DNA from: Clostridium collagenovorans DSM 3089
Lineage (GTDB): Bacteria; Bacillota; Clostridia; Clostridiales; Clostridiaceae
Length of the DNA stretch: 32,000 bases
Direction: 5' to 3'
Assembly (NCBI RefSeq): GCF_900130005.1
Contig: NZ_FQXP01000005.1
Span: 313,746 to 345,745, forward strand
A program made the translations under genes and the position numbers. The notes beneath the pieces were generated by a model. The model worked only from the letters and a program-made list of their open reading frames with translations, did no database searches and was not told the DNA's origin. Positions 1 to 32,000 of this stretch are shown one piece after another. Every line of letters starts with the position of its first letter. Positions within the stretch are counted from its first letter, which is position 1.

Positions 1-2
1 AG

Positions 3-818
3 AAAAAATATGCTTTATATGTAGTAGAGTGCTTAAATTCATTGTGCAAGATAGTTCTTATAAATAATAATAGTGAAAAAGCAACTAAATATTTAATATT
101 AGCTAAAAACTATATATATAAGTATAATTTAATTAATACTAGATCAAGTGCTATTATACACTGTAACCTTGGTTCCATATATTATAGAAACTTGAAATAC
201 ACAGAAACTATAAACTTACTTGAGAGTTTTTTAGATACTCCTAGAGACACTATTTATGTAGATGTATTTGCTACGCTTAATTTTAATTTATCTATCTCAT
301 ATTATAATTTAAATGATTATGATAAGGCTATAGTATATTTAAAACGTTGCTTAAATCTGTCTCAATATCATGGTAATTTATACAAAGATTATGTTTTATA
401 TTGTACACACTCTACATTTTTGATACATTCGAAAAAATTCGATGAATCTATTAATATGTTAACTTATTTAAAGTATCAATTTAAACATGATCCAATTGCA
501 TACAATAATTTACTTGCTCAAGAAATATTAACCTACTTCATTAGCGAAGATTATACAAAATGTCTTAAGGTATGTAATGAAATTAATCTTAACAAACTTA
601 CTAAAGCAGGTAAAATAGATTATTACTTTATTAAAGGATGGATTACTGATGATTTAGATTTATTAAAGCGATGCGAAAATTATTTTATAAATAAATCTTA
701 TTACAAAGATTTAATCGCTCTGTACGATAAATTATACAAAATAACTAAAAATCCAATTTACAAAGATCATATACATTCATATAAGGATAAATCCTTTAGC
801 AAAAATATATTTGCATAA
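3..818 (+). CDS. TPR-repeat protein, 5'-truncated by the window edge; probably the C-terminal sensor domain of an RNPP/XRE-TPR type regulator
   Basis: The frame is open from nt 3, with no stop upstream of the TTG at 42, so the gene starts outside the window. It has TPR-like helical repeats, e.g. LGSIYYRNLKYTETINLLESFL and SISYYNLNDYDKAIVYLKRCLNL. Stop TAA at 816-818. No DNA-binding domain is visible in the window. Confidence 0.55.
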   Translation, partial: KKYALYVVECLNSLCKIVLINNNSEKATKYLILAKNYIYKYNLINTRSSAIIHCNLGSIYYRNLKYTETINLLESFLDTPRDTIYVDVFATLNFNLSISYYNLNDYDKAIVYLKRCLNLSQYHGNLYKDYVLYCTHSTFLIHSKKFDESINMLTYLKYQFKHDPIAYNNLLAQEILTYFISEDYTKCLKVCNEINLNKLTKAGKIDYYFIKGWITDDLDLLKRCENYFINKSYYKDLIALYDKLYKITKNPIYKDHIHSYKDKSFSKNIFA

Positions 819-860
819 AAATAACAACTTTAGCTATGTCTAAAGTTGTTATTTTAGTTT
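817..860. terminator. Bidirectional intrinsic terminator between convergent genes
   Basis: Perfect 15-bp stem (817-832 aaaataacaacttta / 841-855 taaagttgttatttt) with an 8-nt loop. An A-run lies before it and a T-run after it. Confidence 0.8.
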
Positions 861-942: not shown

Positions 943-1566
943 TTAATGAAAGATTGATTCTCCTATTTGTCCTGCTACTTCTTTGTCTGCATCTAAGAAG
1001 TCTACATTACCTTGTGCTCCTCTCATTACATGAAAGATTGACTCTCCTATTTGTCCTGCTACTTCTTTATCTGTACCTAAAAAGTCTACATTGCCTTGTG
1101 CTCCTCTCATTACATGAAAGATTGACTCTCCTATTTGTCCTGCTATTTCTTTATCTGCACCTAAGAAGTCCACATTGCCTTGTGCTCCTCTCATTACATG
1201 AAAAATTGACTCTCCTATTTGTCCTGCTACTTCTTTATCTGCACTTAAGAAATCAACATTACCTTGTGCTCCTCTCATTACATGAAAGATTGATTCTCCT
1301 ATTTGTCCTGCTACTTCCTTACTTGCATCCAAGAAGTCTACATTACCTTGTACTCCTCTCATTACATGAAAGATTGATTCTCCTATTTGTCCTGCTACTT
1401 CTTTATTTTCATTTAAGGAATCTACTGTTCCTGGTGTGCCTCTCATCACATGAAAGATTGACTCCCCTATTTGTCCTGCTACTTCTTTATTTATGTCGAC
1501 TTTTACAACTGCTAATCCCATTAATGCTACTGCTACAGTTAAACAAGCTAAACTTTTCTTTTTCAT
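943..1566 (-). CDS. Secreted tandem-repeat protein: signal/anchor peptide plus 6 full and 1 truncated 28-aa repeats (core KE[VI]AGQIGESIFHVMRG)
   Basis: ATG at 1566 is preceded by GAGGTG (plus 1575-1580) with an 8-nt spacer. The N-terminus MKKKSLACLTVAVALMGLAVV is a positively charged n-region followed by a hydrophobic h-region. The repeats are visible directly in the translation. The protein ends exactly after the core ...GESIFH. Confidence 0.85.
   Translation of the reverse strand: MKKKSLACLTVAVALMGLAVVKVDINKEVAGQIGESIFHVMRGTPGTVDSLNENKEVAGQIGESIFHVMRGVQGNVDFLDASKEVAGQIGESIFHVMRGAQGNVDFLSADKEVAGQIGESIFHVMRGAQGNVDFLGADKEIAGQIGESIFHVMRGAQGNVDFLGTDKEVAGQIGESIFHVMRGAQGNVDFLDADKEVAGQIGESIFH
946..1500 (-). 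repeat. 84-bp tandem DNA repeat, about 6.6 copies, in-frame (28 aa)
   Basis: The motif atgaaagattga(c/t)tc recurs at 946, 1030, 1114, 1198, 1282, 1366 and 1450, an exact 84-nt period. Confidence 0.95.
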
Positions 1567-1608
1567 AATTTTAACACCTCAACCTTATATTTTATAGCTT
1601 AATTCTAA

Positions 1609-1617
1609 TTTATACCA
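1609..1617 (-). promoter_or_regulatory. Candidate extended -10 promoter (TGgTATAAA) for the repeat-protein gene
   Basis: The minus strand reads aTGgTATAAAtt about 40 nt upstream of the ATG. No good -35 is present. Confidence 0.35.
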
Positions 1618-2045
1618 TATTTTTTTTCAAACCTCTCTATTGTTTTTTAGGTACCATTAAAAATTACATTCACTTTAACATATTTATTTACTTCGTTTTT
1701 CTATAGGATTTATTTATTTTTTATTCAAATGTTACTCTCAACAACATTTCTACGTTTTATTTAATTATCATGGGTTTTTATGTAGATTTTTTTACATTTT
1801 ATGCTTGCAACGTCGATTTCTTTACAACGAATCTGTTTTTTATATCACTATACTTTATTGAATTGCCTATGAAATTGATCATTTTTTATTTTTTTATATT
1901 ATAATATATGTAATTTCCTCTATAATTTTATAGTGATTAGGTAGATTTAATTTAGCTTAGTTTGTATAATACTATAATATTAGTAAAACCTATTGTAAAT
2001 AGGTTTTAAAAGATATATGTAAAATTTATTATTGGGGGTATATAA

Positions 2046-2684
2046 ATGGAAATTAAATGGCTTGGACATTCATCATTTCTTATAACTACAAATGATGGCA
2101 CAAAAATTTTGACTGATCCTTTTGATAACACTATAGGTTATGATGTATATACTGGTAATGCTGATATTATTACTGTAAGTCATGATCATTATGACCATAA
2201 TTATTTAAGAGAAGTTAAAGGAACTCCTACTTTAGTAGATAAACCTATGACATATGATTTAGGTAATATAAAGATACATGGAATATCTTCTTATCATGAT
2301 GAAGTTAAGGGGCTTAAAAGAGGTTCTAACATTATCTTCGTAATAGAAGCTGATGGATATAAGCTTGCTCATTTAGGAGATTTAGGACATCTTTTAGATT
2401 TTGATACTATAAATATATTAAATAACCTTGATGTTTTATTCATACCTATAGGTGGAAATTATACAATTGGCCCAAAGGAAGCAGTTAAGTTATGTGATGT
2501 TCTTGATAGCAAATTAATTATTCCTATGCATTACAAAACACCTGCCTTGAATTTTACTATAAAGGGTTTAGAAGAGTTCATTCAAAATATCAAAAATGGT
2601 GAAAAAGTGCATTCTAAGGTTTATACCTTACCAGAAACTATGAATTTTAAAAATAAAGTTATTATTTTAGACTATTTAGATTAA
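2046..2684 (+). CDS. MBL-fold metal-dependent hydrolase (UPF0173/YtkL-like)
   Basis: IKWLGHSSFLI start and SHDHYDH metal motif, about 212 aa. GGGGG RBS upstream (2035-2039). Confidence 0.8.
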   Translation: MEIKWLGHSSFLITTNDGTKILTDPFDNTIGYDVYTGNADIITVSHDHYDHNYLREVKGTPTLVDKPMTYDLGNIKIHGISSYHDEVKGLKRGSNIIFVIEADGYKLAHLGDLGHLLDFDTINILNNLDVLFIPIGGNYTIGPKEAVKLCDVLDSKLIIPMHYKTPALNFTIKGLEEFIQNIKNGEKVHSKVYTLPETMNFKNKVIILDYLD

Positions 2685-2837
2685 TAACATGTTAATTTAT
2701 TGTATTTCTTGTGAATATATAATAGAATAATATATCTAAAACAGTATAAAAAAGTGTATAATGAAATATATAAAGTCTTATTGTCTTATTTTGACATTTT
2801 ACTTTATTTACATTTTGTTATAGGAAAGGAGATTATT

Positions 2838-3569
2838 ATGAGTAACACTACAAAGACAAATCCAGAAGTAAAACCTACAAGTAAAAACGTACCTGTTATA
2901 AAAGGAACTCTTAGAAATCATATGCTTGAAGTTCCTAACTCAATTAGAGATGCTAGTGGTATTGTGATTTTTGGTAAAAGACTTAAGTCTCTTGTGTTTA
3001 CAACTGATGTTGCTATTATAAAAAATACAAATGCTGATGCTGTAATCGCAGTTTATCCTTTTACTCCACAACCAATAATAACTGAAGCTTTAATTTTAGC
3101 TGCTGATGTTCCATTATTCTGCGGAGTTGGTGGAGGTATAACAACTGGTAAAAGAGTTGTAAACCTTGCTCTTGATGCTGAATTCAAAGGTGCAATGGGA
3201 GTTGTTGTTAATAACCCAACACCAAATGAGGTTATAAAGCAAATGAGAGATACAATTGATATTCCAATTATCGTTACTGTTGTATCTGAATTTGAGGATA
3301 TTCAAGGTAGAATAGATGCAGGTGCTACTATACTAAATGTATCAGGAGCTAAAAGAACTGCTCATATTGTTAGAGAAATAAGAAAAGAATTCCCTAATTT
3401 CCCTATCATAGCTACTGGTGGTCCTAATGATGAATCAATAAGAGAAACTATAGCCGCTGGTGCTAATGCTATTACTTATACACCACCTATAGCTTCTGAT
3501 ATATTGAATACTATAATGGAAAAATACAGAAAAGAATATAAGGAAGCTGACGAGCATAACCATGAATAA
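2838..3569 (+). CDS. Conserved TIM-barrel-like protein (phosphate-binding barrel, NanE/ThiE-like features), function unknown
   Basis: I moved the start to ATG 2838, behind AGGAAAGGAG. Gly-rich CGVGGGITTG and ATGGPNDESIRETIAAGANAI motifs resemble phosphate-binding barrels. No specific family was recognised. Confidence 0.6.
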   Translation: MSNTTKTNPEVKPTSKNVPVIKGTLRNHMLEVPNSIRDASGIVIFGKRLKSLVFTTDVAIIKNTNADAVIAVYPFTPQPIITEALILAADVPLFCGVGGGITTGKRVVNLALDAEFKGAMGVVVNNPTPNEVIKQMRDTIDIPIIVTVVSEFEDIQGRIDAGATILNVSGAKRTAHIVREIRKEFPNFPIIATGGPNDESIRETIAAGANAITYTPPIASDILNTIMEKYRKEYKEADEHNHE

Positions 3570-8596: not shown

Positions 8597-8971
8597 ATGG
8601 ATAGAACATCTTTAGATAAAGCTACTATGGAATATTGCAGTTGTACCACGATACATGAAAATATAGTAAATGATGTAAAAAAAGATATGCCTAATGAAGA
8701 AAAGCTTCAAAATATAGCAGATTTATTTAAGGTATTTGGGGACTCTACTAGAATTAAAATAATTTATGCCTTATTTAAATCTGAAATGTGTGTATGTGAT
8801 ATAGCATCTCTACTAGAGATGAATCAATCAGCTATCTCACATCAATTAAGAGTTTTAAAACAAGCAAGATTAGTTAAGTATAGACGTGATGGTAAAGTTG
8901 TATACTACTCTTTAGATGACGATCATATTAAAGGTATTTTTGATATGGCAGCTCATCATATTGACGAATAG
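8597..8971 (+). CDS. cadC: ArsR/SmtB family metal-sensing repressor (CadC/CzrA-like)
   Basis: FKVFGDSTRIKIIYAL...EMCVCDIASLLEMNQSAISHQLRVLKQARLV is a winged HTH carrying the CVC metal motif. It lies directly upstream of a P1B-ATPase gene. Confidence 0.85.
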   Translation: MDRTSLDKATMEYCSCTTIHENIVNDVKKDMPNEEKLQNIADLFKVFGDSTRIKIIYALFKSEMCVCDIASLLEMNQSAISHQLRVLKQARLVKYRRDGKVVYYSLDDDHIKGIFDMAAHHIDE

Positions 8972-8985
8972 TGAGGTGTTTGAAT

Positions 8986-11349
8986 ATGACTGAAAAAGAC
9001 AAAGTAAAAATCTCAAAACAAAATAAAATAGATAGTTCATCTTCTATTGATAAAAAGTTTATACCTTTAAATAAGGATATAGTACATTCTCATAATGAAG
9101 ATAACTGCAATTGTGGAGGTCATCACTCTGATCATGAGAATTCACCACACTCTCATGGTCATGAACATGGAGCTTGCAATTGCAGCTCTGATAATAAAAA
9201 ACCTTCAGAAAATAAAACTTTAAAAGAATCTTCATTAACTAAGCACTATATTTTGAAAGGTTTAGATTGTGCTAACTGTGCTGGAAAGATTGAACTTGGA
9301 GTTAATAATTTTCCTAATGTTGAAGAAGCTTTATTGAACTTCTCAACTTCAACTTTATCAGTAAAAGTTAAAAATAAATCTGCATTAAACACAGTAGAAA
9401 ATGATATAAAGGCTCTTGTGAATAAACTTGAACCTCATGTGTTAGTTATAGAAAAAGGTGATTATAATAAAAATCAATCTGAGGAACATGATGAAGGCTT
9501 TAAAGTTTCAAAAATCATCCCTACTGTAATTGGTACTATTATATTTGCCATTGCAATGCTTTTTAATTTTGATAGCAATGTAGAGTTCGTAATGTTCATG
9601 CTAAGTTATCTTTTAATTGGTGGAGATATACTTTTAAAGGCACTTAAGGGTATTCTTAAAGGGCAAGTTTTTGATGAAAACTTTTTAATGTCTATAGCCA
9701 CAATAGGAGCTGTATTTATAAAAGAATATCCTGAAGCCGTAGCTGTTATGTTATTCTACAAAGTTGGTGAAGCCTTCCAGGGTATTGCTGTTAATCGCTC
9801 TAGAAATTCTATTACTGCTTTAATGGACATACGTCCTGATAAAGCAAACTTAAAAATAAATAACGAAATAAAAGTAGTGTCTCCTGAGGAAGTTTCAATT
9901 GGAGATTTAATAATTGTTAAACCTGGTGAAAAAATTCCTCTAGATGGCGTAATAGTAGATGGTTCTACTATGTTAGATACTTCTGCTTTAACTGGTGAAT
10001 CTGTTCCACGTAAAGCTAATGTTGGAGATGATGTACTAAGTGGAAGCATTAATAAAAACTCTTTAATAACTTTAAAAGTTACTAAGGACTTTGCAGAGTC
10101 TACTGTTTCTAAAATACTAGACTTAGTTCAAAATGCTGGTTCTAAAAAAGCAAAAACTGAAAAGTTCATAAGTAAATTTGCAAGATACTATACTCCTATT
10201 GTAGTTTTCTCTGCTATAGCCTTAGCTCTTTTAGGTCCTGTAATTTTTAATGGTTCCTTTAATGACTGGCTACAAAGAGCACTTATATTCTTGGTAGTTT
10301 CTTGTCCATGTGCTTTAGTTATTTCTATACCTTTAGGTTTCTTTGGTGGTATAGGTTCAGCTTCTGCTAATGGAGTATTAGTTAAAGGTGGAAACTATTT
10401 AGAAGCTTTAAATGAAGTAGATACTATTGTTTTCGATAAAACTGGTACTTTAACTAAAGGTGTCTTTGAAGTTACTGAAGTTAACTTAGCTTCTGATGCT
10501 ACCTTAACTAAAGATGAACTTTTAAAATATGCAGCATATATCGAAAGTTTCTCAACTCACCCTATTGCAACATCTATAACTACTGCATATAAAGGTGAAA
10601 TAAATAAAAGTGTGATTTCTAATTATGAAGAAATTGCTGGACATGGTATAAAAGTTCTAATTGATAAAAAAGAAGCACTAGCTGGTAACTCTAAGCTAAT
10701 GGATAAATTCAATATAAAATATACTAAAAATGCTTCTATTGGAACTATAGTTTATATAGCCATCGATAATAAGTTTCAAGGTTCTTTAACAATATCTGAT
10801 ATGTTAAAAGACGATTCTATAAATGCTATTAAAGGATTTAAAGAAATAGGTATTAAACAAACTATAATGTTAACAGGTGATAATAAGGATGTTGCAAATG
10901 CTATAGGCTCTAAACTTGGCTTGGATAAAGTTTATTCAGAGCTATTACCTCAAAATAAGGTTGAAATCTTAGAAGAAGTTATAAACTCCAATAAGGATAT
11001 TGGTAAGGTTGCCTTTGTTGGTGATGGTGTAAATGATGCTCCTGTATTAGCTAGAGCTGATATCGGTATTGCTATGGGTGGTTTAGGCTCAGATGCAGCC
11101 ATTGAGGCAGCTGATATCGTTTTAATGACTGATGAGCCTTCTAAGATAATAAACGCTATAAAAATAGCTAAATACACTAAAAAAATAGTTACTCAAAACA
11201 TTATCTTTGCTTTAGCTATCAAAATAGGTGTATTGGTACTAAGTGCCTTTGGTTTATCTACTATGTGGGAAGCTATATTTGCTGATGTTGGAGTGTCAGT
11301 ACTTGCAATATTAAATGCCATGAGAGTATTAAAATATAAAGCTAAATAA
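8986..11349 (+). CDS. cadA: Heavy-metal (Cd/Zn/Co-type) translocating P1B-type ATPase
   Basis: I moved the start to ATG 8986, after GAGGTG. It has a His/Cys-rich N-terminal tail, an HMA domain GLDCANCAGKIE, and the CPC, DKTGTLT and GDGVNDAP motifs. Confidence 0.92.
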   Translation: MTEKDKVKISKQNKIDSSSSIDKKFIPLNKDIVHSHNEDNCNCGGHHSDHENSPHSHGHEHGACNCSSDNKKPSENKTLKESSLTKHYILKGLDCANCAGKIELGVNNFPNVEEALLNFSTSTLSVKVKNKSALNTVENDIKALVNKLEPHVLVIEKGDYNKNQSEEHDEGFKVSKIIPTVIGTIIFAIAMLFNFDSNVEFVMFMLSYLLIGGDILLKALKGILKGQVFDENFLMSIATIGAVFIKEYPEAVAVMLFYKVGEAFQGIAVNRSRNSITALMDIRPDKANLKINNEIKVVSPEEVSIGDLIIVKPGEKIPLDGVIVDGSTMLDTSALTGESVPRKANVGDDVLSGSINKNSLITLKVTKDFAESTVSKILDLVQNAGSKKAKTEKFISKFARYYTPIVVFSAIALALLGPVIFNGSFNDWLQRALIFLVVSCPCALVISIPLGFFGGIGSASANGVLVKGGNYLEALNEVDTIVFDKTGTLTKGVFEVTEVNLASDATLTKDELLKYAAYIESFSTHPIATSITTAYKGEINKSVISNYEEIAGHGIKVLIDKKEALAGNSKLMDKFNIKYTKNASIGTIVYIAIDNKFQGSLTISDMLKDDSINAIKGFKEIGIKQTIMLTGDNKDVANAIGSKLGLDKVYSELLPQNKVEILEEVINSNKDIGKVAFVGDGVNDAPVLARADIGIAMGGLGSDAAIEAADIVLMTDEPSKIINAIKIAKYTKKIVTQNIIFALAIKIGVLVLSAFGLSTMWEAIFADVGVSVLAILNAMRVLKYKAK

Positions 11350-22313: not shown

Positions 22314-24272
22314 TTATCTAACAACACTACCAGTTGGAAGCTTTCCAGGGTCAGCTAAGAATAATTTACTATCATCATTAGTTGATGCTGCTAAAATCAT
22401 TCCTTGTGATAATTCCCCTCTTAATGTTACAGGTTTTAAGTTTGCAACTAAAACTACATATTTTCCAACTAACTCTTCTGGTTTGTAATGACATGCAATC
22501 CCTGAAACTACCTGTCTTACTTCTCCACCTAAATCAACTTTAAGTTTCAAAAGTTTCTTAGCTTTCTTTATTGGCTCACATTCTAAAACCTTAACAACTC
22601 TCAAATCTATCTTTTCGAAATCATCAATTGTAATTTCTTCTTTAATAGGAGTCATTTCTTGAACTTCTTCAACAGCTTCTTGAGCTACTTGAGCTACTAA
22701 TCTTTGCTCTTCAGCTATCTTGTTAAGCTCTTCTAACTTCTTCTCAACATCTATTCTTGGGAAGATAACTCCAGTTTTATTAACCTTAGTTCCTGCTTGA
22801 GTACCATCGAAGGATGCTAAGCTATCCCAAGTTGTTAAATCAACATTTAATTGCTCGTTGATTCTTTCACTTGTCTTTGGTAAGAATGCAGATACTAAAA
22901 CTGATGTGAATCTTAAAGCTTCAGCTAAATTATATAAAACAGTTGCTAATCTATCTTTCTTTTCTTCATCTTTTCCAAGTACCCATGGTTCTGTCTCATC
23001 TATAAATTTATTTGTTCTTCTAATTAAAGCCCAAATGTGATCTAAAGCTTGAGGAATTCTTAAATCATCAATAGCTTCTTCAACTAACTTTGGAGTTTTT
23101 AATGCAAGTGTTATTAATTCGTCATCAACAGCTTCCTTAATTACTGGTGCTGGAATATGACCATCAAAATATTTATCAATCATTGTAACAGTTCTTGAAA
23201 CTAAGTTACCTAGATCATTAGCTAAATCTGAATTTGTCTTTTTGATAAATATCTCATTACTAAAGATACCATCTGCACCAAATGGAATTTCATGTAGTAA
23301 ATAATATCTTACTGCATCAACACCAAAATGATTTACTAACATTACAGGGTCTACAATGTTACCTTTAGATTTAGACATCTTACCACCTTCAAGCATTAAC
23401 CATCCGTGTCCAAATACTTGTTTTGGAAGTGGTAAATCTAATGCCATAAGCATTATTGGCCAATAAATAGTATGGAATCTTAAAATATCCTTTCCTATTA
23501 AATGTACATCTGCTGGCCAATATTTTTCCATAAGATTTTCTTCATTATTAAATGCACCTAAAGCTGTAATATAGTTTGAAAGTGCATCTATCCAAACATA
23601 CACAACATGCCCTGGATCAAACTCAACAGGAACTCCCCAATCAAAAGATGTTCTTGAAATACAAAGGTCTTGTAATCCAGGTTTTAAGAAGTTATTTAAC
23701 ATCTCATTCTTTCTTGATTCTGGTTGAATAAATTCTGGATGAGTTTCTATATATTCAATTAATTTATCTGCATACTTAGACATTTTAAAGAAATAAGACT
23801 CTTCCTTAGCTTTTTCTACTGGTCTACCACAATCAGGACATTTTCCATCTACTGCTTGAGTTTCTGTCCAGAAAGACTCACATGGTGTACAATATAATCC
23901 TTCATAAGAACTCTTATATATATCACCTTGGTCATATAATTTCTTGAAAATTGCTTTTACAGAATCCATATGATATTCATCAGTAGTTCTGATAAATTTG
24001 TCATATTTAACATCCATGATGTTCCAAAGTTCTTTTATACCTTCAACAATTTCATCAACATAAGCTTTTGGTGTAACACCTTTTTCTTCTGCTATTCTTT
24101 GAATCTTTTGTCCGTGCTCATCTGAACCTGTTAAAAACATTACATCATAACCTGTTAATCTTTTAAATCTTGCAACAGCATCAGCAGCAACTGTTGTATA
24201 GGTATTACCTATGTGAAGTTTTGCTGATGGATAATATATAGGTGTAGTAATATAATATGGTTTTTTACTCAT
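22314..24272 (-). CDS. metG: Methionine--tRNA ligase with a C-terminal tRNA-binding (Trbp111/EMAP-like) domain
   Basis: HIGN (HIGH-type) and KMSKS motifs, a Zn knuckle CTPCE...CPDCG, and a C-terminal DLRVVKVLECEPIKKAKKLLKLKVDLG. Confidence 0.97.
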   Translation of the reverse strand: MSKKPYYITTPIYYPSAKLHIGNTYTTVAADAVARFKRLTGYDVMFLTGSDEHGQKIQRIAEEKGVTPKAYVDEIVEGIKELWNIMDVKYDKFIRTTDEYHMDSVKAIFKKLYDQGDIYKSSYEGLYCTPCESFWTETQAVDGKCPDCGRPVEKAKEESYFFKMSKYADKLIEYIETHPEFIQPESRKNEMLNNFLKPGLQDLCISRTSFDWGVPVEFDPGHVVYVWIDALSNYITALGAFNNEENLMEKYWPADVHLIGKDILRFHTIYWPIMLMALDLPLPKQVFGHGWLMLEGGKMSKSKGNIVDPVMLVNHFGVDAVRYYLLHEIPFGADGIFSNEIFIKKTNSDLANDLGNLVSRTVTMIDKYFDGHIPAPVIKEAVDDELITLALKTPKLVEEAIDDLRIPQALDHIWALIRRTNKFIDETEPWVLGKDEEKKDRLATVLYNLAEALRFTSVLVSAFLPKTSERINEQLNVDLTTWDSLASFDGTQAGTKVNKTGVIFPRIDVEKKLEELNKIAEEQRLVAQVAQEAVEEVQEMTPIKEEITIDDFEKIDLRVVKVLECEPIKKAKKLLKLKVDLGGEVRQVVSGIACHYKPEELVGKYVVLVANLKPVTLRGELSQGMILAASTNDDSKLFLADPGKLPTGSVVR

Positions 24273-24289: not shown

Positions 24290-24590
24290 GTTGAAAAAAA
24301 ATGCCTCTAAGCTTATCTATAAGCTTAGAGGCATATTATTTACGCGTTACCACTCTAATTCATCCTTATTTCTCAATAAGGATCTCAATAGGTATATATT
24401 TCTATCGTACCCTTCAATATAACGGTTGAAACCGAAACATCTTAAATATATCACTTTCAATATAAATTCAGATGTTTTGCTCAGAGTCCATGTTCATAAG
24501 ATCTTTTATCACCAGCTTTCACCTACCCTGGCTCTCTTTAGATAATCTCCCTTATTACTCTTCTCTTCATAGCTTTTTATGATTTATAAT
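24290..24590 (-). promoter_or_regulatory. T-box leader (Met-specific) controlling metG
   Basis: The minus-strand leader has stem-I elements AGAGAG and GGTGAAAG. The T-box sequence AGAGTGGTAACGCG is at plus 24343-24356. AUG triplets occur in the specifier region at plus 24489-24491 and 24495-24497. A terminator follows. Confidence 0.85.
24293..24334 (-). terminator. T-box terminator hairpin
   Basis: Perfect 15-bp stem (24301-24315 / 24320-24334), 4-nt loop, then a run of 7-8 U. Confidence 0.9.
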
Positions 24591-25525: not shown

Positions 25526-26446
25526 TTATGCAACATCCTCTAAGTCTTTTTTCTTATTTCCCCTTAAGAAGTTCAACTTAGTTTCAGCTGTGATTAGTCC
25601 AACTAAAATAAATGCACATCCAATAACCATCTTAACAGTAAATAATTCTCCTAGAATTATAACTGATGCTAAAGCACCAAATACACTCTCTAAAGATAAA
25701 ATTATAGCTGCATGAGTTGATGTCGTATATTTTTGTGCTGAGTTTTGAATAATATATGCAACCATAGTGCTTACTGCACCTAAGTAAAATACCGCTGCCC
25801 ATCCTACTGTTGGTACATTAGTAGGCATTCCTTCCCCTGATATAAGGACCGCGATTACTGAAAGTATCATAGCCGTTGCCATTTGTAATACTGTTATTAT
25901 AATTGGGTCTGACTTTTGTGTAAAATGCTCCACAACTATAATATACATTGCAAAGAATACCGCACAAACAACTGTTAAGCCGTCCCCTAAAAGCTGAGTA
26001 CTCTCGAAAGAAGCCTCACCATTTAAACTTAACAATCCCATACCTAATAAGCATATAAAAGTCGCTGCAAAAGTATAGTTATCAGGTTTCTTTTTCTTTA
26101 CAAACCAATAAAAAAATGGAACCATAACTACGTTTAATCCAGTTAAAAAAGACTGTTTTCCTGGAGTGGTATAATTAAGTCCTACTGTTTGAGTAGTAAA
26201 TGCTAAAAATAATACAATACCTACTATAACCCCAGCTTTTACGTCTTGTTTATTGATTTTTTTAAGCTTTTTAAAGAATATTATTGCCATTAATACAAAG
26301 GCTACTCCGAATCTTATGGCCATTGTATAATATGTACCTATCCCATTACTTAAAGATAAATCAGTAGCAACAAATCCTAAGCCCCATATTAAAGCACATA
26401 GCAATAAGGCTAAATCTGCCATTACAGTTTTCTTCTTTTCGTTCAT
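25526..26446 (-). CDS. EamA/DMT superfamily transporter
   Basis: Ten TM helices in two EamA-like halves. I moved the start to ATG 26446, after AGAGGGGGA. Confidence 0.85.
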   Translation of the reverse strand: MNEKKKTVMADLALLLCALIWGLGFVATDLSLSNGIGTYYTMAIRFGVAFVLMAIIFFKKLKKINKQDVKAGVIVGIVLFLAFTTQTVGLNYTTPGKQSFLTGLNVVMVPFFYWFVKKKKPDNYTFAATFICLLGMGLLSLNGEASFESTQLLGDGLTVVCAVFFAMYIIVVEHFTQKSDPIIITVLQMATAMILSVIAVLISGEGMPTNVPTVGWAAVFYLGAVSTMVAYIIQNSAQKYTTSTHAAIILSLESVFGALASVIILGELFTVKMVIGCAFILVGLITAETKLNFLRGNKKKDLEDVA

Positions 26447-26575
26447 TATAATTAAATCCCCCTCTTTTGAAATCAATCGTCTCATGCCTTAAAACGATTT
26501 TTTTCTTAAATTATCTTAATAATCATACATCATTATAAAGATAAGTTCCAGTAAAAGGTTTTCTATTCTTTTACT

Positions 26576-26604
26576 AATTAAGACTCTATAATAGAGTCTT
26601 AATT
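26576..26604. repeat. Perfect 29-bp palindrome (14-1-14)
   Basis: aattaagactctat-a-atagagtcttaatt. It lies 82 nt after the peptidase stop and 130 nt before the EamA start. There is no U-tract on the transcribed (minus) strand. Confidence 0.9.
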
Positions 26605-26685
26605 ATATTTTATCCCCACTTTTAGCTCAACTTTATCCCCAAAGAGCCAAGTAACCACTTACTAAACCGTTATAGGCTTATATTT

Positions 26686-27756
26686 TTACTTTATACAAAT
26701 TAATTCTTTAGAAGTTTTTGTTAGAATTTCTACTCCATCATTTTTAACAACAACAGTATCTTCTATTCTAACTCCACCCCAATCAGGAATATAAAGACCT
26801 GGTTCTACAGTTACAACACAGTTTTCTTCGAAAACTCTGTTCCCCGCGTAACTTATAAATGGCTGTTCATGTAATTCTAAGCCCACACCATGACCTATAC
26901 CTGAATAATAGTATTCTATATACTTTTCTGAAGCTGCTCTTGCTAAATCATCTGGAGTCTTTGTTGAAACACCAGTTTTAATAGAGTTTTGAGCATCCTC
27001 TTGAGCCTTTTTCACCATATTATATATTTCTAGTTGCTTTTCATCAGGTGTGCCCATAACTATTGTTCTTGTCATATCAGAACGATATCCATTATACATA
27101 GCGCCATAATCAAATAATAAAAAATCCCCATCTTCTATTACTTTATCCCCTGGCTGCCCATGTAGAAGAGATGTTTTAGCACCTGAAATTAGAATAGTAT
27201 CAAAAGCAAGTCCATCTGCACCTTCTTTTTTCATATAATATTCTAATTCTAAAGATACTTCTTTTTCAGTCATTCCAACTTTAACGAAGTCTAATATTTT
27301 AGAAAAGGCTTTATCAGCAATAATTGCTGCTTTTCTTGTACATTCTATTTCTTCTTCATCTTTAACATATCTTAAATCTTCAATAATTCCATCAGTTGGA
27401 ACTAATTGAGCTGTAGTTAAACAATTCTTTAATTTTTCATATAAAGAAAAACTAACCACTTCTTGCTCAAAAGCAATTTTAGAAATATTATTCTCTTTAG
27501 CAATAGCTTCAACTGATTGTCCTAAAGTATTTCCTGGTCTTGCCCATTTTTCAACTATGAATCCTGGACATTGCTTTTCAGCCTGCTCCGTATATCTTCC
27601 ATCAGTAATTACATACTGTTTCTCAGGTGTTATAAATAAATACGCACCTGAATCAGTAAACCCACTAATGTATCTAACATTAGGAACCTTACTTATAAAG
27701 AATCCGTCAATCCCCTGACTTCTCATAACTTCTTTTAATCTACTTAATCTTTTCAT
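26686..27756 (-). CDS. M24 family Xaa-Pro aminopeptidase/dipeptidase
   Basis: Creatinase-like N-domain followed by a pita-bread domain, with FDYGAMYNGYRSDMTRT, HGVGLELHE and VEPGLY...GGVRIEDT metal-ligand motifs. I moved the start to ATG 27756. Confidence 0.88.
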   Translation of the reverse strand: MKRLSRLKEVMRSQGIDGFFISKVPNVRYISGFTDSGAYLFITPEKQYVITDGRYTEQAEKQCPGFIVEKWARPGNTLGQSVEAIAKENNISKIAFEQEVVSFSLYEKLKNCLTTAQLVPTDGIIEDLRYVKDEEEIECTRKAAIIADKAFSKILDFVKVGMTEKEVSLELEYYMKKEGADGLAFDTILISGAKTSLLHGQPGDKVIEDGDFLLFDYGAMYNGYRSDMTRTIVMGTPDEKQLEIYNMVKKAQEDAQNSIKTGVSTKTPDDLARAASEKYIEYYYSGIGHGVGLELHEQPFISYAGNRVFEENCVVTVEPGLYIPDWGGVRIEDTVVVKNDGVEILTKTSKELICIK

Positions 27757-27790
27757 ACAACTCACCTACTGTGTTTTAAAGTAAAGTATC

Positions 27791-28615
27791 CTATTTTCTT
27801 TTTGAATCATAAGAAGACATTTCTTTAGATTTCTCAGCACAAGCCATCATACCTTCAATAACAGCATTTCTCATGCCATATTTTTCCATAGCTATAACAG
27901 CATCTATAGTTGTTCCTGCTGGAGAACAAACCATGTCTTTTATTTCTCCTGGATGCTTTCCTGTTTCAAGAATCATTTTAGCTGTACCTAATACTGCTTG
28001 TGAAGCCATCTTGTATGCACTTGGACGTGTTAATCCTAATGCAACACCTGCATCAGCCATAGCTTCTACAAATAAGCATACATAAGCTGGAGATGATCCA
28101 CTAATTGCTATAAATGCATCTATGAAACTTTCTTTAAGTATTTCTACTTTTCCAAAACTTTGATATATTTCTTTAACTAAATCTAGTTCTTCATCACTAA
28201 TGTTTCTATTAGGACATAGAGCTGACATAGCTTCTGAAACTAAAGCTGGTGTATTAGGCATAGTTCTAACTAACTTTATACCTCTTTCAAAAGAATGTTC
28301 TATTTCAGCAATAGTTACTCCTGCCATTATACTTACTATAATACAATCCTTTTTAACCTTTGACTTTATTTCATCCGCAACTATTGGAAATATATTAGGT
28401 TTAACAGATAATATCAATACATCAGCTTCAGCTACAACTTCTAAGTTAGATTTAGTAGTCCTAACCCCTAACTCCTTCTCTGCTATATCTAAAGATGGTT
28501 GATATAAATCTGAAACTATGATATTTGTACTTGGTACAAGGTTAGATTTAATTATCCCCCCCATCATAGCTCTTCCCATATTTCCACAGCCTATAAAACC
28601 TATAATTTTATCCAT
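27791..28615 (-). CDS. proC: Pyrroline-5-carboxylate reductase
   Basis: IGFIGCGNMGRAM Rossmann motif, plus RTMPNTPALV and SPAGTT motifs. I moved the start to ATG 28615, after GAGGGGGA. Confidence 0.92.
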   Translation of the reverse strand: MDKIIGFIGCGNMGRAMMGGIIKSNLVPSTNIIVSDLYQPSLDIAEKELGVRTTKSNLEVVAEADVLILSVKPNIFPIVADEIKSKVKKDCIIVSIMAGVTIAEIEHSFERGIKLVRTMPNTPALVSEAMSALCPNRNISDEELDLVKEIYQSFGKVEILKESFIDAFIAISGSSPAYVCLFVEAMADAGVALGLTRPSAYKMASQAVLGTAKMILETGKHPGEIKDMVCSPAGTTIDAVIAMEKYGMRNAVIEGMMACAEKSKEMSSYDSKRK

Positions 28616-28646
28616 AACTAAATAAGTCCCCCTCAAGTATTTATAA

Positions 28647-28680
28647 GGAACCAAGGATACTCTCCTATATCCTTGGTACC
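28647..28680 (-). terminator. Strong hairpin between the glycyl radical enzyme gene and proC (terminator or processing site)
   Basis: 13-bp stem ggaaccaaggata / tatccttggtacc matching at 12 of 13 positions, 8-nt loop, weak U-tract (uuauaaau). Confidence 0.45.
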
Positions 28681-28764
28681 CATATTCCACACATTATATT
28701 GCTATACAATTCTTGCAATATACCCTCAAACATTATTAAGGGATCTTCTTAGTAAAGTTTATAA

Positions 28765-31146
28765 TTAGCAGCAGCTTGCTACTCCTTCTATCTCTTGTTC
28801 TGTTCTGTTTATGATTTCATCTTGTAATACTTTATTTAAATTACAGAAGTAATCACTGTATCCAGCAACACGAACTATTAAGTCCTTGTATTCATCTGGA
28901 TTTTCTTGAGCTCTCATTAAAGTAGCTCTGTCAACAACGTTAAATTGGATATGGTGTCCACCCATCTTGAAGTAAGATCTTACTAATTTAACGATATTAT
29001 TTAATCCATCATCACCAGCAACAACCCCTGGAGTGAATTTTTGATTTAATAGTGTACCACCAGTTTTTACGTGGTCCATTTTAGAAGCTGATTTAATAAC
29101 TGCTGTTGGGCCGTTTCTATCAGCGTTCTTTGATGGAGATATACCTTCTGAAGTTGGTAATGCAGATTTTCTTCCATCAGCACTTGCGCCCATTACTTTA
29201 CCAAAGTAAACGTGACAAGTTGTTGGAAGCATATCAATTCTGTAAGTACCACCATTTACAGTTGGTCTTCCATCTATAGATTTTTGGTACATATTAAATA
29301 CTTCTTTCATAATGTCATCAGCATAGTCATCATCGTTACCATACTTAGGAGTATTGTTACATACTAAGCTGTATACATCATTATGACCTTCGAAGTTATC
29401 TTCTAAAGCTTTCATTAATTCAGCCATTGAGAAGTTTTTATTATCGAATACATTGTATTTAATTGAAGATAAAGCATCTGTAATTGTTCCAATACCAACA
29501 CCTTGAACATATTTTACATTGTATCTAGCTCCACCAGCATTGTAGTCTTTTGCATTAGTGATACAGTCATCAATAACAACAGACATAAATGGTGAAGGCA
29601 TCATTGTAGCGTATATTCTTTCGATGATTTGGTTACCTTCAAGTTTAATTTCAACAAAGTGATGAACTTGTTTTGTATAAGCTTCGAATAATTCTTCGTA
29701 GCTCTTGAAGTCTTCAGCCTTACCAGTTTGTAAACCTATTTGTTTCTTAGTTCTTGGGTCGTAACCATTATTTAATGTAATTTCAAGAATCTTAGGTAAG
29801 TTAAAGTATCCTGTTAAAGCATAACACTCCTTACCAAAAGCACCAGTTTCAACACATCCACTAGTTCCACCACATCTAGCATCTTCGATAGATTTTCCAA
29901 CTCTTAACATTTCTTCAATAACTGTCTCTACGTTGAACATTGATGGCTGTCCAAATCCAGTTCTAACAATCTTAGCAGCTCTCTTAATAAAGCTATCTGG
30001 ATTTAGTCTACTTACTTGGATATTTGAACTTGGTTGTAATAATCTCATTTCTTCAATTACATCTAAAATCATAAATGTTACTTCATTAACAGCGTCCTTA
30101 CCTTCTTTAGTAACACCACCTAAGTTAATGTTACAGAAATCTGTGTAAGTTCCACTTTCCTCTAAAGTTATACCAACTTTTGGAGGAGCTGGTTGGTTGT
30201 TAAATTTAACCCAGAAACACTCTAATAATTCTGTAGCTTGCTCTTCAGTTAAAGTTCCAGCTTCATTTTCTTTTTTGTAGAATGGATATAAGTGACTATC
30301 TAATCTTCCTGGGCTGAATGAATCCCAAGTATTTAACTCGATAGTTACTCCTAAGTGTACAAACCAGTACATTTGTAATGCTTCACGGAATGTTCTTGGA
30401 GCATGTTCTGGTACCCATCTACAAGTTTCAGCTATTTCTAATAATTCAGATTTTCTTTGTGGACATTCTTCTTTAGCAGCTAATTCTTCTGCTAAATCTG
30501 CATGTCTGTGTGCAAATATAATTAATCCATCACAAACGATATCCATAGCTTTTAATTCAGCTTCTTTATCGTATGCTTGTACGTCATTTACGAAGTCTAA
30601 CTTAGCTATTTCTTCAGCTATTTGAGCTTTGAAATCTAAGAATCCTTTATGATAAATCTTGTCTCCACAAACTGCATGTCCTGGTGATCTTTGCTCCATG
30701 AATTCAGTAATAATACCTGCTTCATATAAGTCATGCCATTCTGGAGTCATTCTATCAAGTATAATTTTTCTTAAAGCTCTATTTTCCCAGTAAGGAATTA
30801 TTTCTTCCTTTTGGAATTGTTTTTTCTCTTCATTTACTCTAAAAGATATCTTTTCACGTCTGTCCATGATATCGAAATCTTCTAAAGTGTGACAACATAA
30901 TTCTGGATAGTTTGGTGTAGCAGCTGGTGCTGAACCTTTTTCCCCTACTATTAACTCTCCATCATTGATACAAACAGTTTTATTAGCCATAACATGTTTG
31001 AATGCTAATGCTCTTAAAACCGGTGTTGGTACTGTACCTTGATACATTTTGTAAGCTTCTGTTATATATTTTGCTCTTTCTAAGCAAATATATGGGTCAG
31101 CGCTAACACTTTGAGCTCTTAATTTTTTAACTCTTTCTGTCATCAT
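28765..31146 (-). CDS. hypD: Glycyl radical enzyme of the dehydratase (1,2-eliminase) class; by context trans-4-hydroxy-L-proline dehydratase
   Basis: C-terminal glycyl radical motif VRVAGYSDYF. Cys-loop GGTSGCVETG (Cys-x-Glu, dehydratase type, not the PFL Cys-Cys). Flanked by an activase and proC. Confidence 0.75.
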   Translation of the reverse strand: MMTERVKKLRAQSVSADPYICLERAKYITEAYKMYQGTVPTPVLRALAFKHVMANKTVCINDGELIVGEKGSAPAATPNYPELCCHTLEDFDIMDRREKISFRVNEEKKQFQKEEIIPYWENRALRKIILDRMTPEWHDLYEAGIITEFMEQRSPGHAVCGDKIYHKGFLDFKAQIAEEIAKLDFVNDVQAYDKEAELKAMDIVCDGLIIFAHRHADLAEELAAKEECPQRKSELLEIAETCRWVPEHAPRTFREALQMYWFVHLGVTIELNTWDSFSPGRLDSHLYPFYKKENEAGTLTEEQATELLECFWVKFNNQPAPPKVGITLEESGTYTDFCNINLGGVTKEGKDAVNEVTFMILDVIEEMRLLQPSSNIQVSRLNPDSFIKRAAKIVRTGFGQPSMFNVETVIEEMLRVGKSIEDARCGGTSGCVETGAFGKECYALTGYFNLPKILEITLNNGYDPRTKKQIGLQTGKAEDFKSYEELFEAYTKQVHHFVEIKLEGNQIIERIYATMMPSPFMSVVIDDCITNAKDYNAGGARYNVKYVQGVGIGTITDALSSIKYNVFDNKNFSMAELMKALEDNFEGHNDVYSLVCNNTPKYGNDDDYADDIMKEVFNMYQKSIDGRPTVNGGTYRIDMLPTTCHVYFGKVMGASADGRKSALPTSEGISPSKNADRNGPTAVIKSASKMDHVKTGGTLLNQKFTPGVVAGDDGLNNIVKLVRSYFKMGGHHIQFNVVDRATLMRAQENPDEYKDLIVRVAGYSDYFCNLNKVLQDEIINRTEQEIEGVASCC

Positions 31147-31152
31147 AATAGA

Positions 31153-32000
31153 TTACCCCCCAATCTTTACTTTTAAACCTACATTTTTGAAAATTTCTGA
31201 CAATTCATTCATTTTCGCATGTGATGGTTCTTGAATTTCTTGTAATTTAAGATCCATATTTAATCTTTTATATTTATCCATACCCATTTTGTGATATGGT
31301 AAAAGATTCACTTGAATAATGTTTAGGTTCTTTAATAATTCAGCAGCCTTTTTTAAATCTTCTATATCATCATTAACACCTGGTATTATAGGCATTCTGA
31401 TGTAAATATTTTTCCCCAAGTCCGATAACTTCTTCAAGTTATCCAAAATCAATTCATTTGGTACTGAGGTATAAATTTTGTGTTTATCACTATTCATATG
31501 CTTCAAATCATATAAGAATAAGTCTGTATAATCTACTATCTTTTCAAACTTATCCCATGATACATACCCACAAGTATCTATTGTAGTGTGTATGTCCATT
31601 CTCTTGCACTTCTTCATTACTTCTCTTAAAAAATCAGCTTGGATAAGTGGCTCTCCCCCTGAGAAAGTTACTCCCCCATTTGATTCATCATAGAATACCT
31701 GATCTTTCATAATTTCTTTAAATAACTCATCTACAGAAATATACTTTCCTTTAATAACCCTTGCTTCATTAATGCAATATTTCGAACATTCAGAGCAAAG
31801 TTCACAACTCTCAGAATTATATTTAAGTTTGCCATCAACAATTGATAAGGCGCCCTTTGGACAATGTTTTATACAATTTCCACAAGCCGTACACTTTTCT
31901 TCCCAGTACATTACTTCTGGTTCTAGATGCTGACTTTCTGGATTGTGACACCACCAACAATTAAGTGGACAACCCTTGAAAAATACTGTTGTACGTATGC
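31153..32000 (-). CDS. Glycyl-radical-enzyme activating protein (radical SAM with ferredoxin-like insert), 5' end outside the window
   Basis: The frame stays open above the ATG at 31911. The upstream in-frame translation reads ...FFKGCPLNCWWCHNPES, which is the CxxxCxxC motif. Two CxxCxxCxxxC clusters follow. The stop lies 6 nt before hypD. Confidence 0.9.
   Translation of the reverse strand, partial: IRTTVFFKGCPLNCWWCHNPESQHLEPEVMYWEEKCTACGNCIKHCPKGALSIVDGKLKYNSESCELCSECSKYCINEARVIKGKYISVDELFKEIMKDQVFYDESNGGVTFSGGEPLIQADFLREVMKKCKRMDIHTTIDTCGYVSWDKFEKIVDYTDLFLYDLKHMNSDKHKIYTSVPNELILDNLKKLSDLGKNIYIRMPIIPGVNDDIEDLKKAAELLKNLNIIQVNLLPYHKMGMDKYKRLNMDLKLQEIQEPSHAKMNELSEIFKNVGLKVKIGG

Follow-up and report, generated by a model that had tools for sequence, protein, structure and literature searches.

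A 32,000-nucleotide stretch of contig NZ_FQXP01000005.1, from a member of the Clostridiaceae, was analysed here (the window). It contains an open reading frame (ORF) at 943..1566 on the minus strand, which encodes a 207-amino-acid (aa) protein with a Sec-type N-terminus followed by tandem repeats. From sequence comparisons, this gene probably encodes the multi-copy pheromone pre-pro-peptide of an RRNPP-type (PlcR/Qsr-like) quorum-sensing system. Four observations carry this interpretation: the anatomy of the gene, its pairing with a convergent regulator that combines a helix-turn-helix (HTH) with tetratricopeptide repeats (TPRs), a 9-mer common to all alleles, and a cassette-like polymorphism that spans the regulator and the repeats.

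The repeat gene and its convergent regulator

Tandem Repeats Finder (TRF) delimited an array at 946-1490 with a period of 84 nt, 6.5 copies, 90% matches, and a score of 845. The protein consists of MKKKSLACLTVAVALMGLAVVKVDIN, followed by six 28-aa units of the form KE[VI]AGQIGESIFHVMRG-xQGNVDFLxxx and a 13-aa seventh unit, with the units beginning at residues 27, 55, 83, 111, 139, 167, and 195. The seventh unit halts after 13 aa (...KEVAGQIGESIFH), at GQIGESIFH, and the stop codon follows immediately. A preliminary description of the locus had proposed a Sec-type N-terminus, six 28-aa units, and a 13-aa seventh, and this layout was borne out by the ORF, the TRF result, and an in-register alignment. 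The same description stated that a 17-aa core is essentially invariant and that only the spacers vary. The core is indeed conserved, but so is most of the spacer: across units 2-6, 23 of 28 protein positions never change, a single substitution occurs at each of positions 3 and 18, and all other variation is confined to positions 26-28. A divergent second half is found in unit 1 and in no other.

Within the first 17 codons of the unit, eight columns vary, seven of them synonymously and one by a V/I exchange. This predominance of synonymous changes (7/8) implies that the minus-strand frame is under purifying selection. The mirror ORF on the plus strand (954..1568) was dismissed as an artefact of the repeat. 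The mature part, approximately 180 aa in length, contains seven His residues (one per unit) and a single Pro, located in the divergent first unit, and is devoid of Cys and Trp. Dibasic sites are absent from the precursor.

The N-terminus fits well with a Sec signal, as predicted from its lysines and hydropathy. MKKK is followed by a 15-residue hydrophobic stretch (residues 7-21) with a mean Kyte-Doolittle value of 2.58, compared with a maximum of 0.63 beyond residue 25, and candidate signal-peptidase sites lie after AVA14 or GLA19. Pfam and NCBIfam contained no family above threshold for the 207-aa protein and revealed no anchor or sorting domain, and no LPXTG, S-layer, or cell-wall-binding domain, in agreement with the preliminary description, which had recognised neither a cell-wall anchor or sorting signal nor a family. 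A sequence search of the PDB with the repeat protein returned no related solved structure, the only match being a designed helical repeat (E 9e-4). An NCBIfam match to PrdD scored 26 bits (cut-off 320) without any individual stretch above threshold and was attributed to summed repeat noise, and an Aegerolysin match (18 bits) was likewise rejected as noise.

The gene converges with a second gene, of which the window holds the 3' portion. The window DNA is 97% identical to the related contigs L004-L006, in which this putative receptor gene is complete, and complete orthologs are 419-421 aa in length (421 aa for P0026). TPR_2 was detected in the window's receptor part (34.5 bits; Pfam cut-off 27), while P0026 has an N-terminal XRE-type HTH (HTH_3, 38.9 bits; Pfam cut-off 23) followed by TPRs. 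In the full-length orthologs, HTH_3/HTH_19 and TPR_1/TPR_2 exceed the Pfam cut-offs. The best natural PDB match of the receptor by sequence was PlcR, a Bacillus virulence regulator that binds a peptide (2qfc; phmmer E 1.5e-6), and a profile of six receptors matched the same PlcR entry over positions 4-112 (E 1.5e-8). HTH regulators from plasmids of the B. cereus group (family unverified) aligned to receptor residues 4-306 with 26-27% identity.

An AlphaFold2 (AF2) model of the receptor, built from six sequences, reached a pLDDT of 69.6 overall and 80-96 for most of residues 140-370. The model is all-helical across residues 129-408, and residues 1-128 are of low confidence. Foldseek matches to this model were dominated by TPR proteins, with designed TPRs first, PlcR-PapR at rank 3, and Rap of phi3T at rank 23. 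The convergent gene has the architecture of HTH-bearing RRNPP quorum-sensing receptors. Its family comprises seven proteins at E<=1e-10 among 5.8 billion clusters. P0030, a more distant receptor relative (32-34% identity), was uninformative, lying on a 1.9-kb contig without a recognisable repeat gene.

Relatives, the common nonapeptide, and allelic variation

A word-indexed protein search with the full protein found nothing at E<=1e-3, and an exact-sequence look-up of the 207-aa protein returned no record. The single match in a GTDB scan was a NUDIX hydrolase from an Acidobacteriaceae metagenome-assembled genome (MAG), which shares just 'LDFLDADKE'. An exhaustive HMMER search of 1.84 billion representatives gave 23 matches, with P0001 and P0005 as the only true relatives. 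P0002-P0004 and P0007, which were read, proved to be long repeat proteins without relationship that match via their periodicity, and the remaining matches, of 489-2854 aa, appear to be of the same sort. P0014, with a similar-looking 26-aa unit SEVAGIPSYIHDARRIRGFTQFLQAG, lacks a signal peptide, and its JGI contig is gene-poor and carries no receptor; it was ascribed to chance or to a non-coding satellite. Scanning JGI metagenomes with the receptor profile found nothing, and a DNA pattern for VAGQIGE gave 11 single, unrelated matches there. Viral contigs, phage records, and plasmids held no member, and yielded only the distant B. cereus-group plasmid HTH regulators and HTH-only matches. The homology search suggested in the preliminary description thus ended with two relatives of the repeat protein beside an HTH-TPR gene and no Pfam or NCBIfam family.

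In P0001 (locus L002), the signal peptide matches that of the window's protein exactly and is followed by the units KEVAGQIGEPIIHSTRGARGIVDILGAD and the end ...GIVDFL before the stop codon, for a total of 79 aa and two units. This two-unit version derives from a MEGAHIT contig (k141), in which assembly collapse is possible. P0005 (locus L003, a Clostridium sp. MAG of another species) is 109 aa in length and has a diverged signal peptide. The remainder of P0005 consists of GQIGESIMH three times head to tail, a 24-aa linker, GQIGESIMH twice more, and a terminal GQIGIGQELI. TRF accordingly resolved 27-nt units in L003, i.e., the bare 9-aa GQIGESIMH without a spacer. L002 and L003 share the same arrangement, with a metallo-beta-lactamase (MBL)-fold hydrolase gene, the repeat gene, and the convergent HTH-TPR gene. 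The receptor and precursor genes are 124 nt apart in the window, compared with 92 nt for L002 and 49 nt for L003, and the repeat gene is convergent with the regulator in all loci readable on both sides (the window, L002, L003, L004-6, L007-8, and L009).

The remaining loci supplied partial precursors. Before the stop codon, the L004-6 contigs end in ...VMRGAQGNVDFLDADKEVAGQIGESIFH, which is the window's allele (97% DNA identity), the L007-8 contigs in ...GQIGDTIIHNTRGAKGIVDFL, and the L009 contig (2789-2903, beside receptor P0028) in ...HVMRGAQGNIEFL. Every short-read (Logan) contig of the species (L004-L009, L022-L030) breaks inside the 84-nt array, from either side, which accounts for the absence of the full-length precursor from the large protein collections (5.8 billion clusters). 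In sample SRR33868086, the N-terminal side (L028, 1-188) reads ...GQIGEPIIHSTRGARGIADLSDLDKEVAGQIG and the C-terminal side (L009) reads ...HVMRGAQGNIEFL before the stop codon. This mismatch reflects either one allele mixing two unit types, with two peptides per precursor, or two co-occurring strains.

The sole element common to all alleles is the 9-mer GQIG[ED]xIxH, which replaces the 17-aa core of the preliminary description as the key element. An allele of bare 9-mers, as in L003, is hard to reconcile with a 28-aa structural repeat. Since nothing follows His in copy 7, the common product of all seven copies would end at or before this residue, and the L003 product must fit into nine residues. 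Together, these constraints suggest that the mature peptide is GQIGESIFH or a portion of it. A length of 9 aa falls within the known sizes of RRNPP pheromones. QspB7, for instance, has 7 aa (PMC7376267).

The precursor C-termini differ by allele. The window's protein ends at the core, three other alleles end in ...[VI][DE]FL, and one in ...GQIGIGQELI. The stop codon directly after the core, to which the preliminary description drew attention, is therefore a property of the window and L004-L006 and not of the other alleles. Its wider proposal, a precursor that releases several identical peptides, gains strong but indirect support from the regulator pairing, the bare 9-mer relative, and the allelic co-variation described below. 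That reading was partly supported overall, being largely right in spirit with details in need of revision.

L002, L004, L007, and L009 are 98-100% identical to one another over the 1360 nt that precede the receptor gene and over the first ~200 nt of the gene itself, whereas the TPR-coding part and the repeat region show 55-85% identity. Between the window and L002, identity is back to 95.8% in the stretch made up of the first repeat unit, the signal peptide, the promoter, and the MBL gene. Synonymous (dS) and nonsynonymous (dN) divergence, estimated by the Nei-Gojobori method, separated the receptor in the same manner: HTH codons 1-65 gave dN = 0 and dS 0.03-0.14, and the remaining codons gave dS 0.8-2.3 with dN/dS ~0.1, being as divergent as they are from L003 of the other species. 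All same-species alleles have identical precursor residues 1 to 34-38, a segment that comprises the signal peptide and the beginning of unit 1. Contigs with an MBL protein and a signal peptide identical to those of the window carry the cores ESIF.., DTII.., or EPII.., and one kind of peptide tail was seen per receptor allele (cores ESIFH, EPIIH, DTIIH). The edges of the polymorphic block fall at the HTH/TPR and signal peptide/repeat boundaries.

The combination of saturated dS and low dN/dS within near-identical flanks implies old, functionally constrained alleles in a near-clonal background. The receptor TPR part and the repeats thus appear to form a pherotype-like cassette with several discrete alleles within one species. 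The same pattern marks pherotype loci such as PlcR-PapR, ComQXP, and Agr.

Running divergently to the receptor gene, a 54-aa ORF with a GTG start (VIAFDEIDIRIADFNHYF...) was also noted at L002 3246-3410, with equivalents in L004-L009. Six of the seven other loci have the same sequence, and one residue is different in L009. A role as alternative propeptide was rejected for the lack of a signal peptide or hydrophobic stretch, the GTG start, and the position in the near-invariant flank, and the ORF is probably neither a gene nor a propeptide.

Proposed signalling route and competing explanations

We infer a route that leads from export and processing, through the exact peptide, its uptake, and its binding, to the targets of the regulator. 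Sec would export the 207-aa product, with removal of the signal peptide, and extracellular proteases would then release seven copies of one short peptide, within or equal to GQIGESIFH. An oligopeptide permease (Opp) would take the peptide back in, where it would bind the TPR domain of the cytoplasmic XRE-HTH/TPR regulator encoded next door and alter its DNA-binding activity. For re-import and TPR binding there is indirect support, in that the TPR part and the cores co-vary while the HTH and the signal peptide are identical. Positive feedback on the precursor's own promoter is possible, and seven copies per chain would multiply the signal output per transcript. The receptor TPR part and the cores would represent old, discrete pherotypes, exchanged as a cassette between strains of one species.

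The RRNPP signature comprises a Sec/signal peptidase I (SPI) propeptide, a small propeptide, a receptor of 250-500 aa, TPRs, and direct neighbours at -60..400 bp (PMC10075063). Four of these five features are present or plausibly present at the locus: the receptor length (419-421 aa), the TPRs, and the gaps (49-124 nt) each agree with the signature, and the Sec-type N-terminus is indicated by hydropathy.

Several points weigh against a pheromone precursor. The fifth feature, a small propeptide, is missing, as the precursor has fourfold the length of any validated RRNPP propeptide (207 aa compared with 21-50 aa, with a detection range of 10-100 aa; PMC10075063). The window contains no protease or Opp genes. 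The 19-aa spacer, HxxRGAxGxV(D/E)FL..., is well conserved within and between alleles A-D, which hints at a role past mere spacing, such as a second peptide, a protease site, or a fold. The differing C-termini of the precursors mean that a 'C-terminal peptide' rule gives no consistent answer. For the receptor, the modest Foldseek match to PlcR (E 3e-5, TM 0.31/0.44) is paralleled by similar scores for designed TPRs, LGN, and KLC, and the HTH part of the AF2 model is of low confidence. The convergent layout places the divergent TPR part next to the divergent repeats in one contiguous block (~1.7 kb), so linkage alone may explain their co-variation, which could be due to one recombination unit and not to co-adaptation. 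Finally, a low-confidence AF2 model of the repeat protein, computed without an alignment, shows a regular helix plus two-strand repeat; with a pLDDT of 57, this single-sequence model was set aside as uninformative.

Some of these points would equally suit a secreted or cell-surface repeat protein that acts intact (matrix, adhesive, or solenoid) and is merely beside, or regulated by, the HTH-TPR regulator. The 28-aa unit, spacer included, is strongly conserved within the protein, the low-confidence single-sequence model suggests a helix and two-strand repeat, and the contiguity of the divergent block could give co-variation through linkage alone. Allelic diversity would then correspond to surface-antigen or phage-receptor variation, and variable surface proteins likewise show allele-like diversity. 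We regard this explanation as unlikely, since the unit architecture is not conserved (L003 has bare 9-aa units and L002 reads just two units), no anchor, LPXTG, S-layer, or cell-wall-binding domain was found, and the mature part is only ~180 aa in length. Moreover, block edges at the HTH/TPR and signal peptide/repeat boundaries suit a ligand-receptor cassette, not an antigen gene alone.

The evidence for a precursor applies with equal force to a bioactive peptide other than a self-signal (antimicrobial, interference, or host-directed), for which the HTH-TPR protein would act as a regulator or another sensor, and bacteriocin loci also often vary by strain. This option appears very unlikely in view of the gene content: no immunity, ABC-export, or modification gene is adjacent, and the neighbours are the conserved MBL-fold hydrolase, an uncharacterised 243-271-aa protein, a MATE pump, and NrdDG. 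The peptide is short and acidic to neutral, not amphipathic-cationic, and its gene is tightly paired with a regulator of the TPR peptide-binding type whose TPR part co-varies. Identical repeated cores between conserved, recognition-like spacers also recall multi-core precursors of ribosomally synthesised and post-translationally modified peptides (RiPPs), in which the cores are enzymatically modified in the style of cyanobactins or microviridins. However, bacterial RiPP precursors normally lack Sec signal peptides, and no radical SAM, YcaO, lanthionine synthetase, ATP-grasp, or protease gene is adjacent in any locus. The radical-SAM protein that occurs nearby, next to NrdD, is the NrdG activase. 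We therefore give a RiPP precursor hardly any credence.

The preliminary description had offered, as its alternative, metal binding through an H-x-M (FHVM) motif, i.e., a periplasm-like or extracellular metal-binding repeat protein. One His per unit (seven in the mature part) and an ArsR regulator with an HMA P-type ATPase located 7 kb away would be in line with this idea. However, H-x-M is not conserved, and the H-S-T, H-N-T, and H-G-Q of the other alleles remove the motif and largely refute the proposal. The protein has no Cys and a lone His per unit, and the metal genes are not adjacent and lie outside the conserved three-gene arrangement. Metal binding thus seems extremely improbable.

Read as a pheromone precursor, the protein can be compared with described peptide-signalling systems. 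For Rap-Phr, propeptides that contain several pheromone copies have been documented (Even-Tov 2016, PMC5199041), and up to eight copies of the same pheromone have been reported (Felipe-Ruiz 2024, PMC11343458). As with the Phr of phi105 and phi3T, a Sec-exported propeptide would carry several (near-)identical pheromone copies that are more conserved than the intervening regions, a TPR receptor is encoded next door, and receptor and peptide diversify together. In contrast, Rap has an N-terminal 3-helix bundle and no HTH, and Phr is 5-6 aa in length, whereas an XRE HTH and a 9-aa common core are found here. Described Phr propeptides are short, hence the upper limit of 100 aa in detection tools, and differ in this respect from the present precursor with its 207 aa, 28-aa period, and conserved 19-aa spacer. 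The convergent genes and the Clostridiaceae host are further differences, and no sequence homology to any Phr was found.

PlcR-PapR of the B. cereus group shares with the present system an N-terminal XRE-type HTH followed by TPRs and a Sec-exported precursor (predicted here). Among natural solved structures it is the closest by sequence, and it is among the top fold matches. Discrete pherotypes are known for PlcR-PapR, with co-variation between the peptide and the TPR region of its receptor. On the other hand, PlcR has 285 aa compared with 421 aa here, and PapR is a 48-aa protein with one C-terminal heptapeptide, encoded downstream in the same orientation. No sequence resembling a PlcR box was identified, and identity to the plasmid-borne B. 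cereus-group HTH regulators is ~26%.

In clostridia, the Qsr-Qsp (C. acetobutylicum) and QssR-QssP (C. saccharoperbutylacetonicum) systems employ Xre-HTH regulators with ~7 TPRs (Kotte 2020, PMC7376267). They resemble the present locus in the clostridial host, the Xre-HTH plus TPR regulator, and an adjacent precursor whose N-terminus is positively charged and which includes a hydrophobic region. The active Qsp peptide, of ~7 aa, is internal in the C-terminal part of its precursor (PMC7376267). Compared by description, Qsp precursors differ in being 39-50 aa long, single-copy, and encoded downstream in the same orientation, with conserved L, P, and W near the C-terminus; here, the precursor has 207 aa, is convergent, and has a mature part with a single Pro and no Trp. 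The yeast alpha-factor precursor MF-alpha1 and other fungal mating pheromones show a comparable layout, with a signal peptide and then tandem identical copies with spacers. This resemblance is an analogy only, as alpha-factor involves dibasic Kex2 sites, Ste13 trimming, and a surface G-protein-coupled receptor, whereas dibasic sites are lacking here and the presumed receptor is cytoplasmic.

Regulatory signals, neighbouring genes, and significance

The coordinates of the features are collected in Table 1. Although a promoter-like element precedes the precursor gene, the promoter scan overall showed no enrichment over shuffles; the counterpart of this block in L003 is TTGAAA-17-TACAAT. The hairpin between the convergent genes is likely a bidirectional terminator for both. 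The terminator scan expected 0.3 such sites by chance, and L002 and L003 have hairpins of different sequence at the equivalent place. The palindrome AATGTT-N9-AACATT occurs once in the window, but at least one match was also found in 31 of 100 shuffles, so that it is not significant alone. Equivalents are located at L002 1095-1115 and L003 6016-6036, between the divergent precursor and MBL genes, and in L003, from the other species, the flanking base pair is altered on both sides (A/T to G/C). The palindrome was not found 5' of the receptor genes. Rfam gave no match in or near the precursor locus.

Table 1. Positions of the precursor gene, its repeats and signals, and the convergent regulator in the window.
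Feature	Position	Strand	Basis or remark
Precursor gene (secreted multi-copy peptide precursor, predicted)	943..1566	-	Stop codon 943-945; ORF and repeat analysis
Sec-type signal peptide region, residues 1-21 (MKKK + hydrophobic stretch), predicted	1504..1566	-	Hydropathy, small-x-small sites
Repeat region, six 28-aa units and 13-aa seventh	946..1488	-	TRF and in-register alignment
Core copy 1, GQIGESIFH, residues 31-39	1450..1476	-	Core defined by comparison with alleles B, C, E
Core copy 2, GQIGESIFH, residues 59-67	1366..1392	-	In-register alignment
Core copy 3, GQIGESIFH, residues 87-95	1282..1308	-	In-register alignment
Core copy 4, GQIGESIFH, residues 115-123	1198..1224	-	In-register alignment
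Core copy 5, GQIGESIFH, residues 143-151	1114..1140	-	In-register alignment
Core copy 6, GQIGESIFH, residues 171-179	1030..1056	-	In-register alignment
Core copy 7, GQIGESIFH, residues 199-207	946..972	-	Stop directly after; same end in L004-L006
Ribosome-binding site GAGGTG	1575..1580	-	8 nt 5' of ATG; conserved in L002, L003
Promoter-like TTGAAA-17-TAGAAT	1602..1630	-	10/12 positions match; conserved across species
Palindrome AATGTT-N9-AACATT, candidate operator for HTH regulator (speculative)	1728..1748	.	~100 nt upstream of -35 element
Hairpin between the two convergent genes	818..855	.	16-bp stem; A-run on one side, T-run on the other
Putative peptide receptor, XRE-HTH + TPR regulator, C-terminal 271 codons (TPR part)	1..818	+	Cut by window start

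The rest of the window holds ordinary chromosomal content. At 2046-3569 (plus strand), a gene for an MBL-fold protein (Lactamase_B_3) precedes a 243-271-aa ORF whose only Pfam matches are sub-threshold and TIM-barrel-like. This pair flanks the precursor gene in every locus, including L003 of the other species. The MBL region shows 95.8% DNA identity between the window and L002, and the MBL protein is identical in 11 contigs. The pair is probably unrelated to the signalling cassette. An ordinary metal-efflux pair, consisting of an ArsR-family regulator and then an HMA-domain P-type ATPase, is located at 8597-11349 (plus strand), 7 kb from the precursor. A T-box leader (RF00230, 109 bits) at 24324-24579 (minus strand) lies upstream of the methionyl-tRNA synthetase gene at 22314-24272 (minus strand), an ordinary arrangement. 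The encoded synthetase shows 100% identity only to proteins of unlabelled read-archive assemblies, compared with 88% to a Clostridium sp. MAG and 85% to Oceanirhabdus. The gene run at 25526-31911 (minus strand) encodes an EamA transporter, an M24 Xaa-Pro-peptidase-like protein, pyrroline-5-carboxylate reductase, a PFL-like glycyl-radical enzyme (28765-31146), and a 252-aa ORF (31153-31911), and presumably resembles a hydroxyproline dehydratase (HypD)-type cluster.

We class the system as one that works like RRNPP with a PlcR-like receptor architecture, and not as a new kind of biology. Its new points are an HTH-type receptor with a seven-copy, 207-aa precursor, the 28-aa frame with a conserved spacer, the convergent genes, and a very rare sequence family. 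We tentatively raise the possibility of an unrecognised HTH-TPR quorum-sensing clade whose signal is a 'polyprotein', with seven nonapeptides per 207-aa chain in a 28-aa frame and at least four ancient pherotypes in one Clostridiaceae species. The conserved spacer could be a second signal or a dedicated processing module.

If the pheromone interpretation is true, the multi-copy strategy documented for Rap-Phr of Bacillus and its phages would reach HTH-type receptors in clostridia, in a far more extreme form with seven copies in a 207-aa precursor. The detection limit that excludes propeptides above 100 aa, together with the breaks in short-read contigs, implies that long multi-copy precursors could be overlooked across the Bacillota. 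The practical value would be modest until the organism or regulon is known. Nevertheless, the four to five receptor/peptide alleles, set in near-isogenic backgrounds and two to three peptide positions apart, would constitute a natural specificity test set, suited to the study of how TPR receptors evolve peptide specificity.

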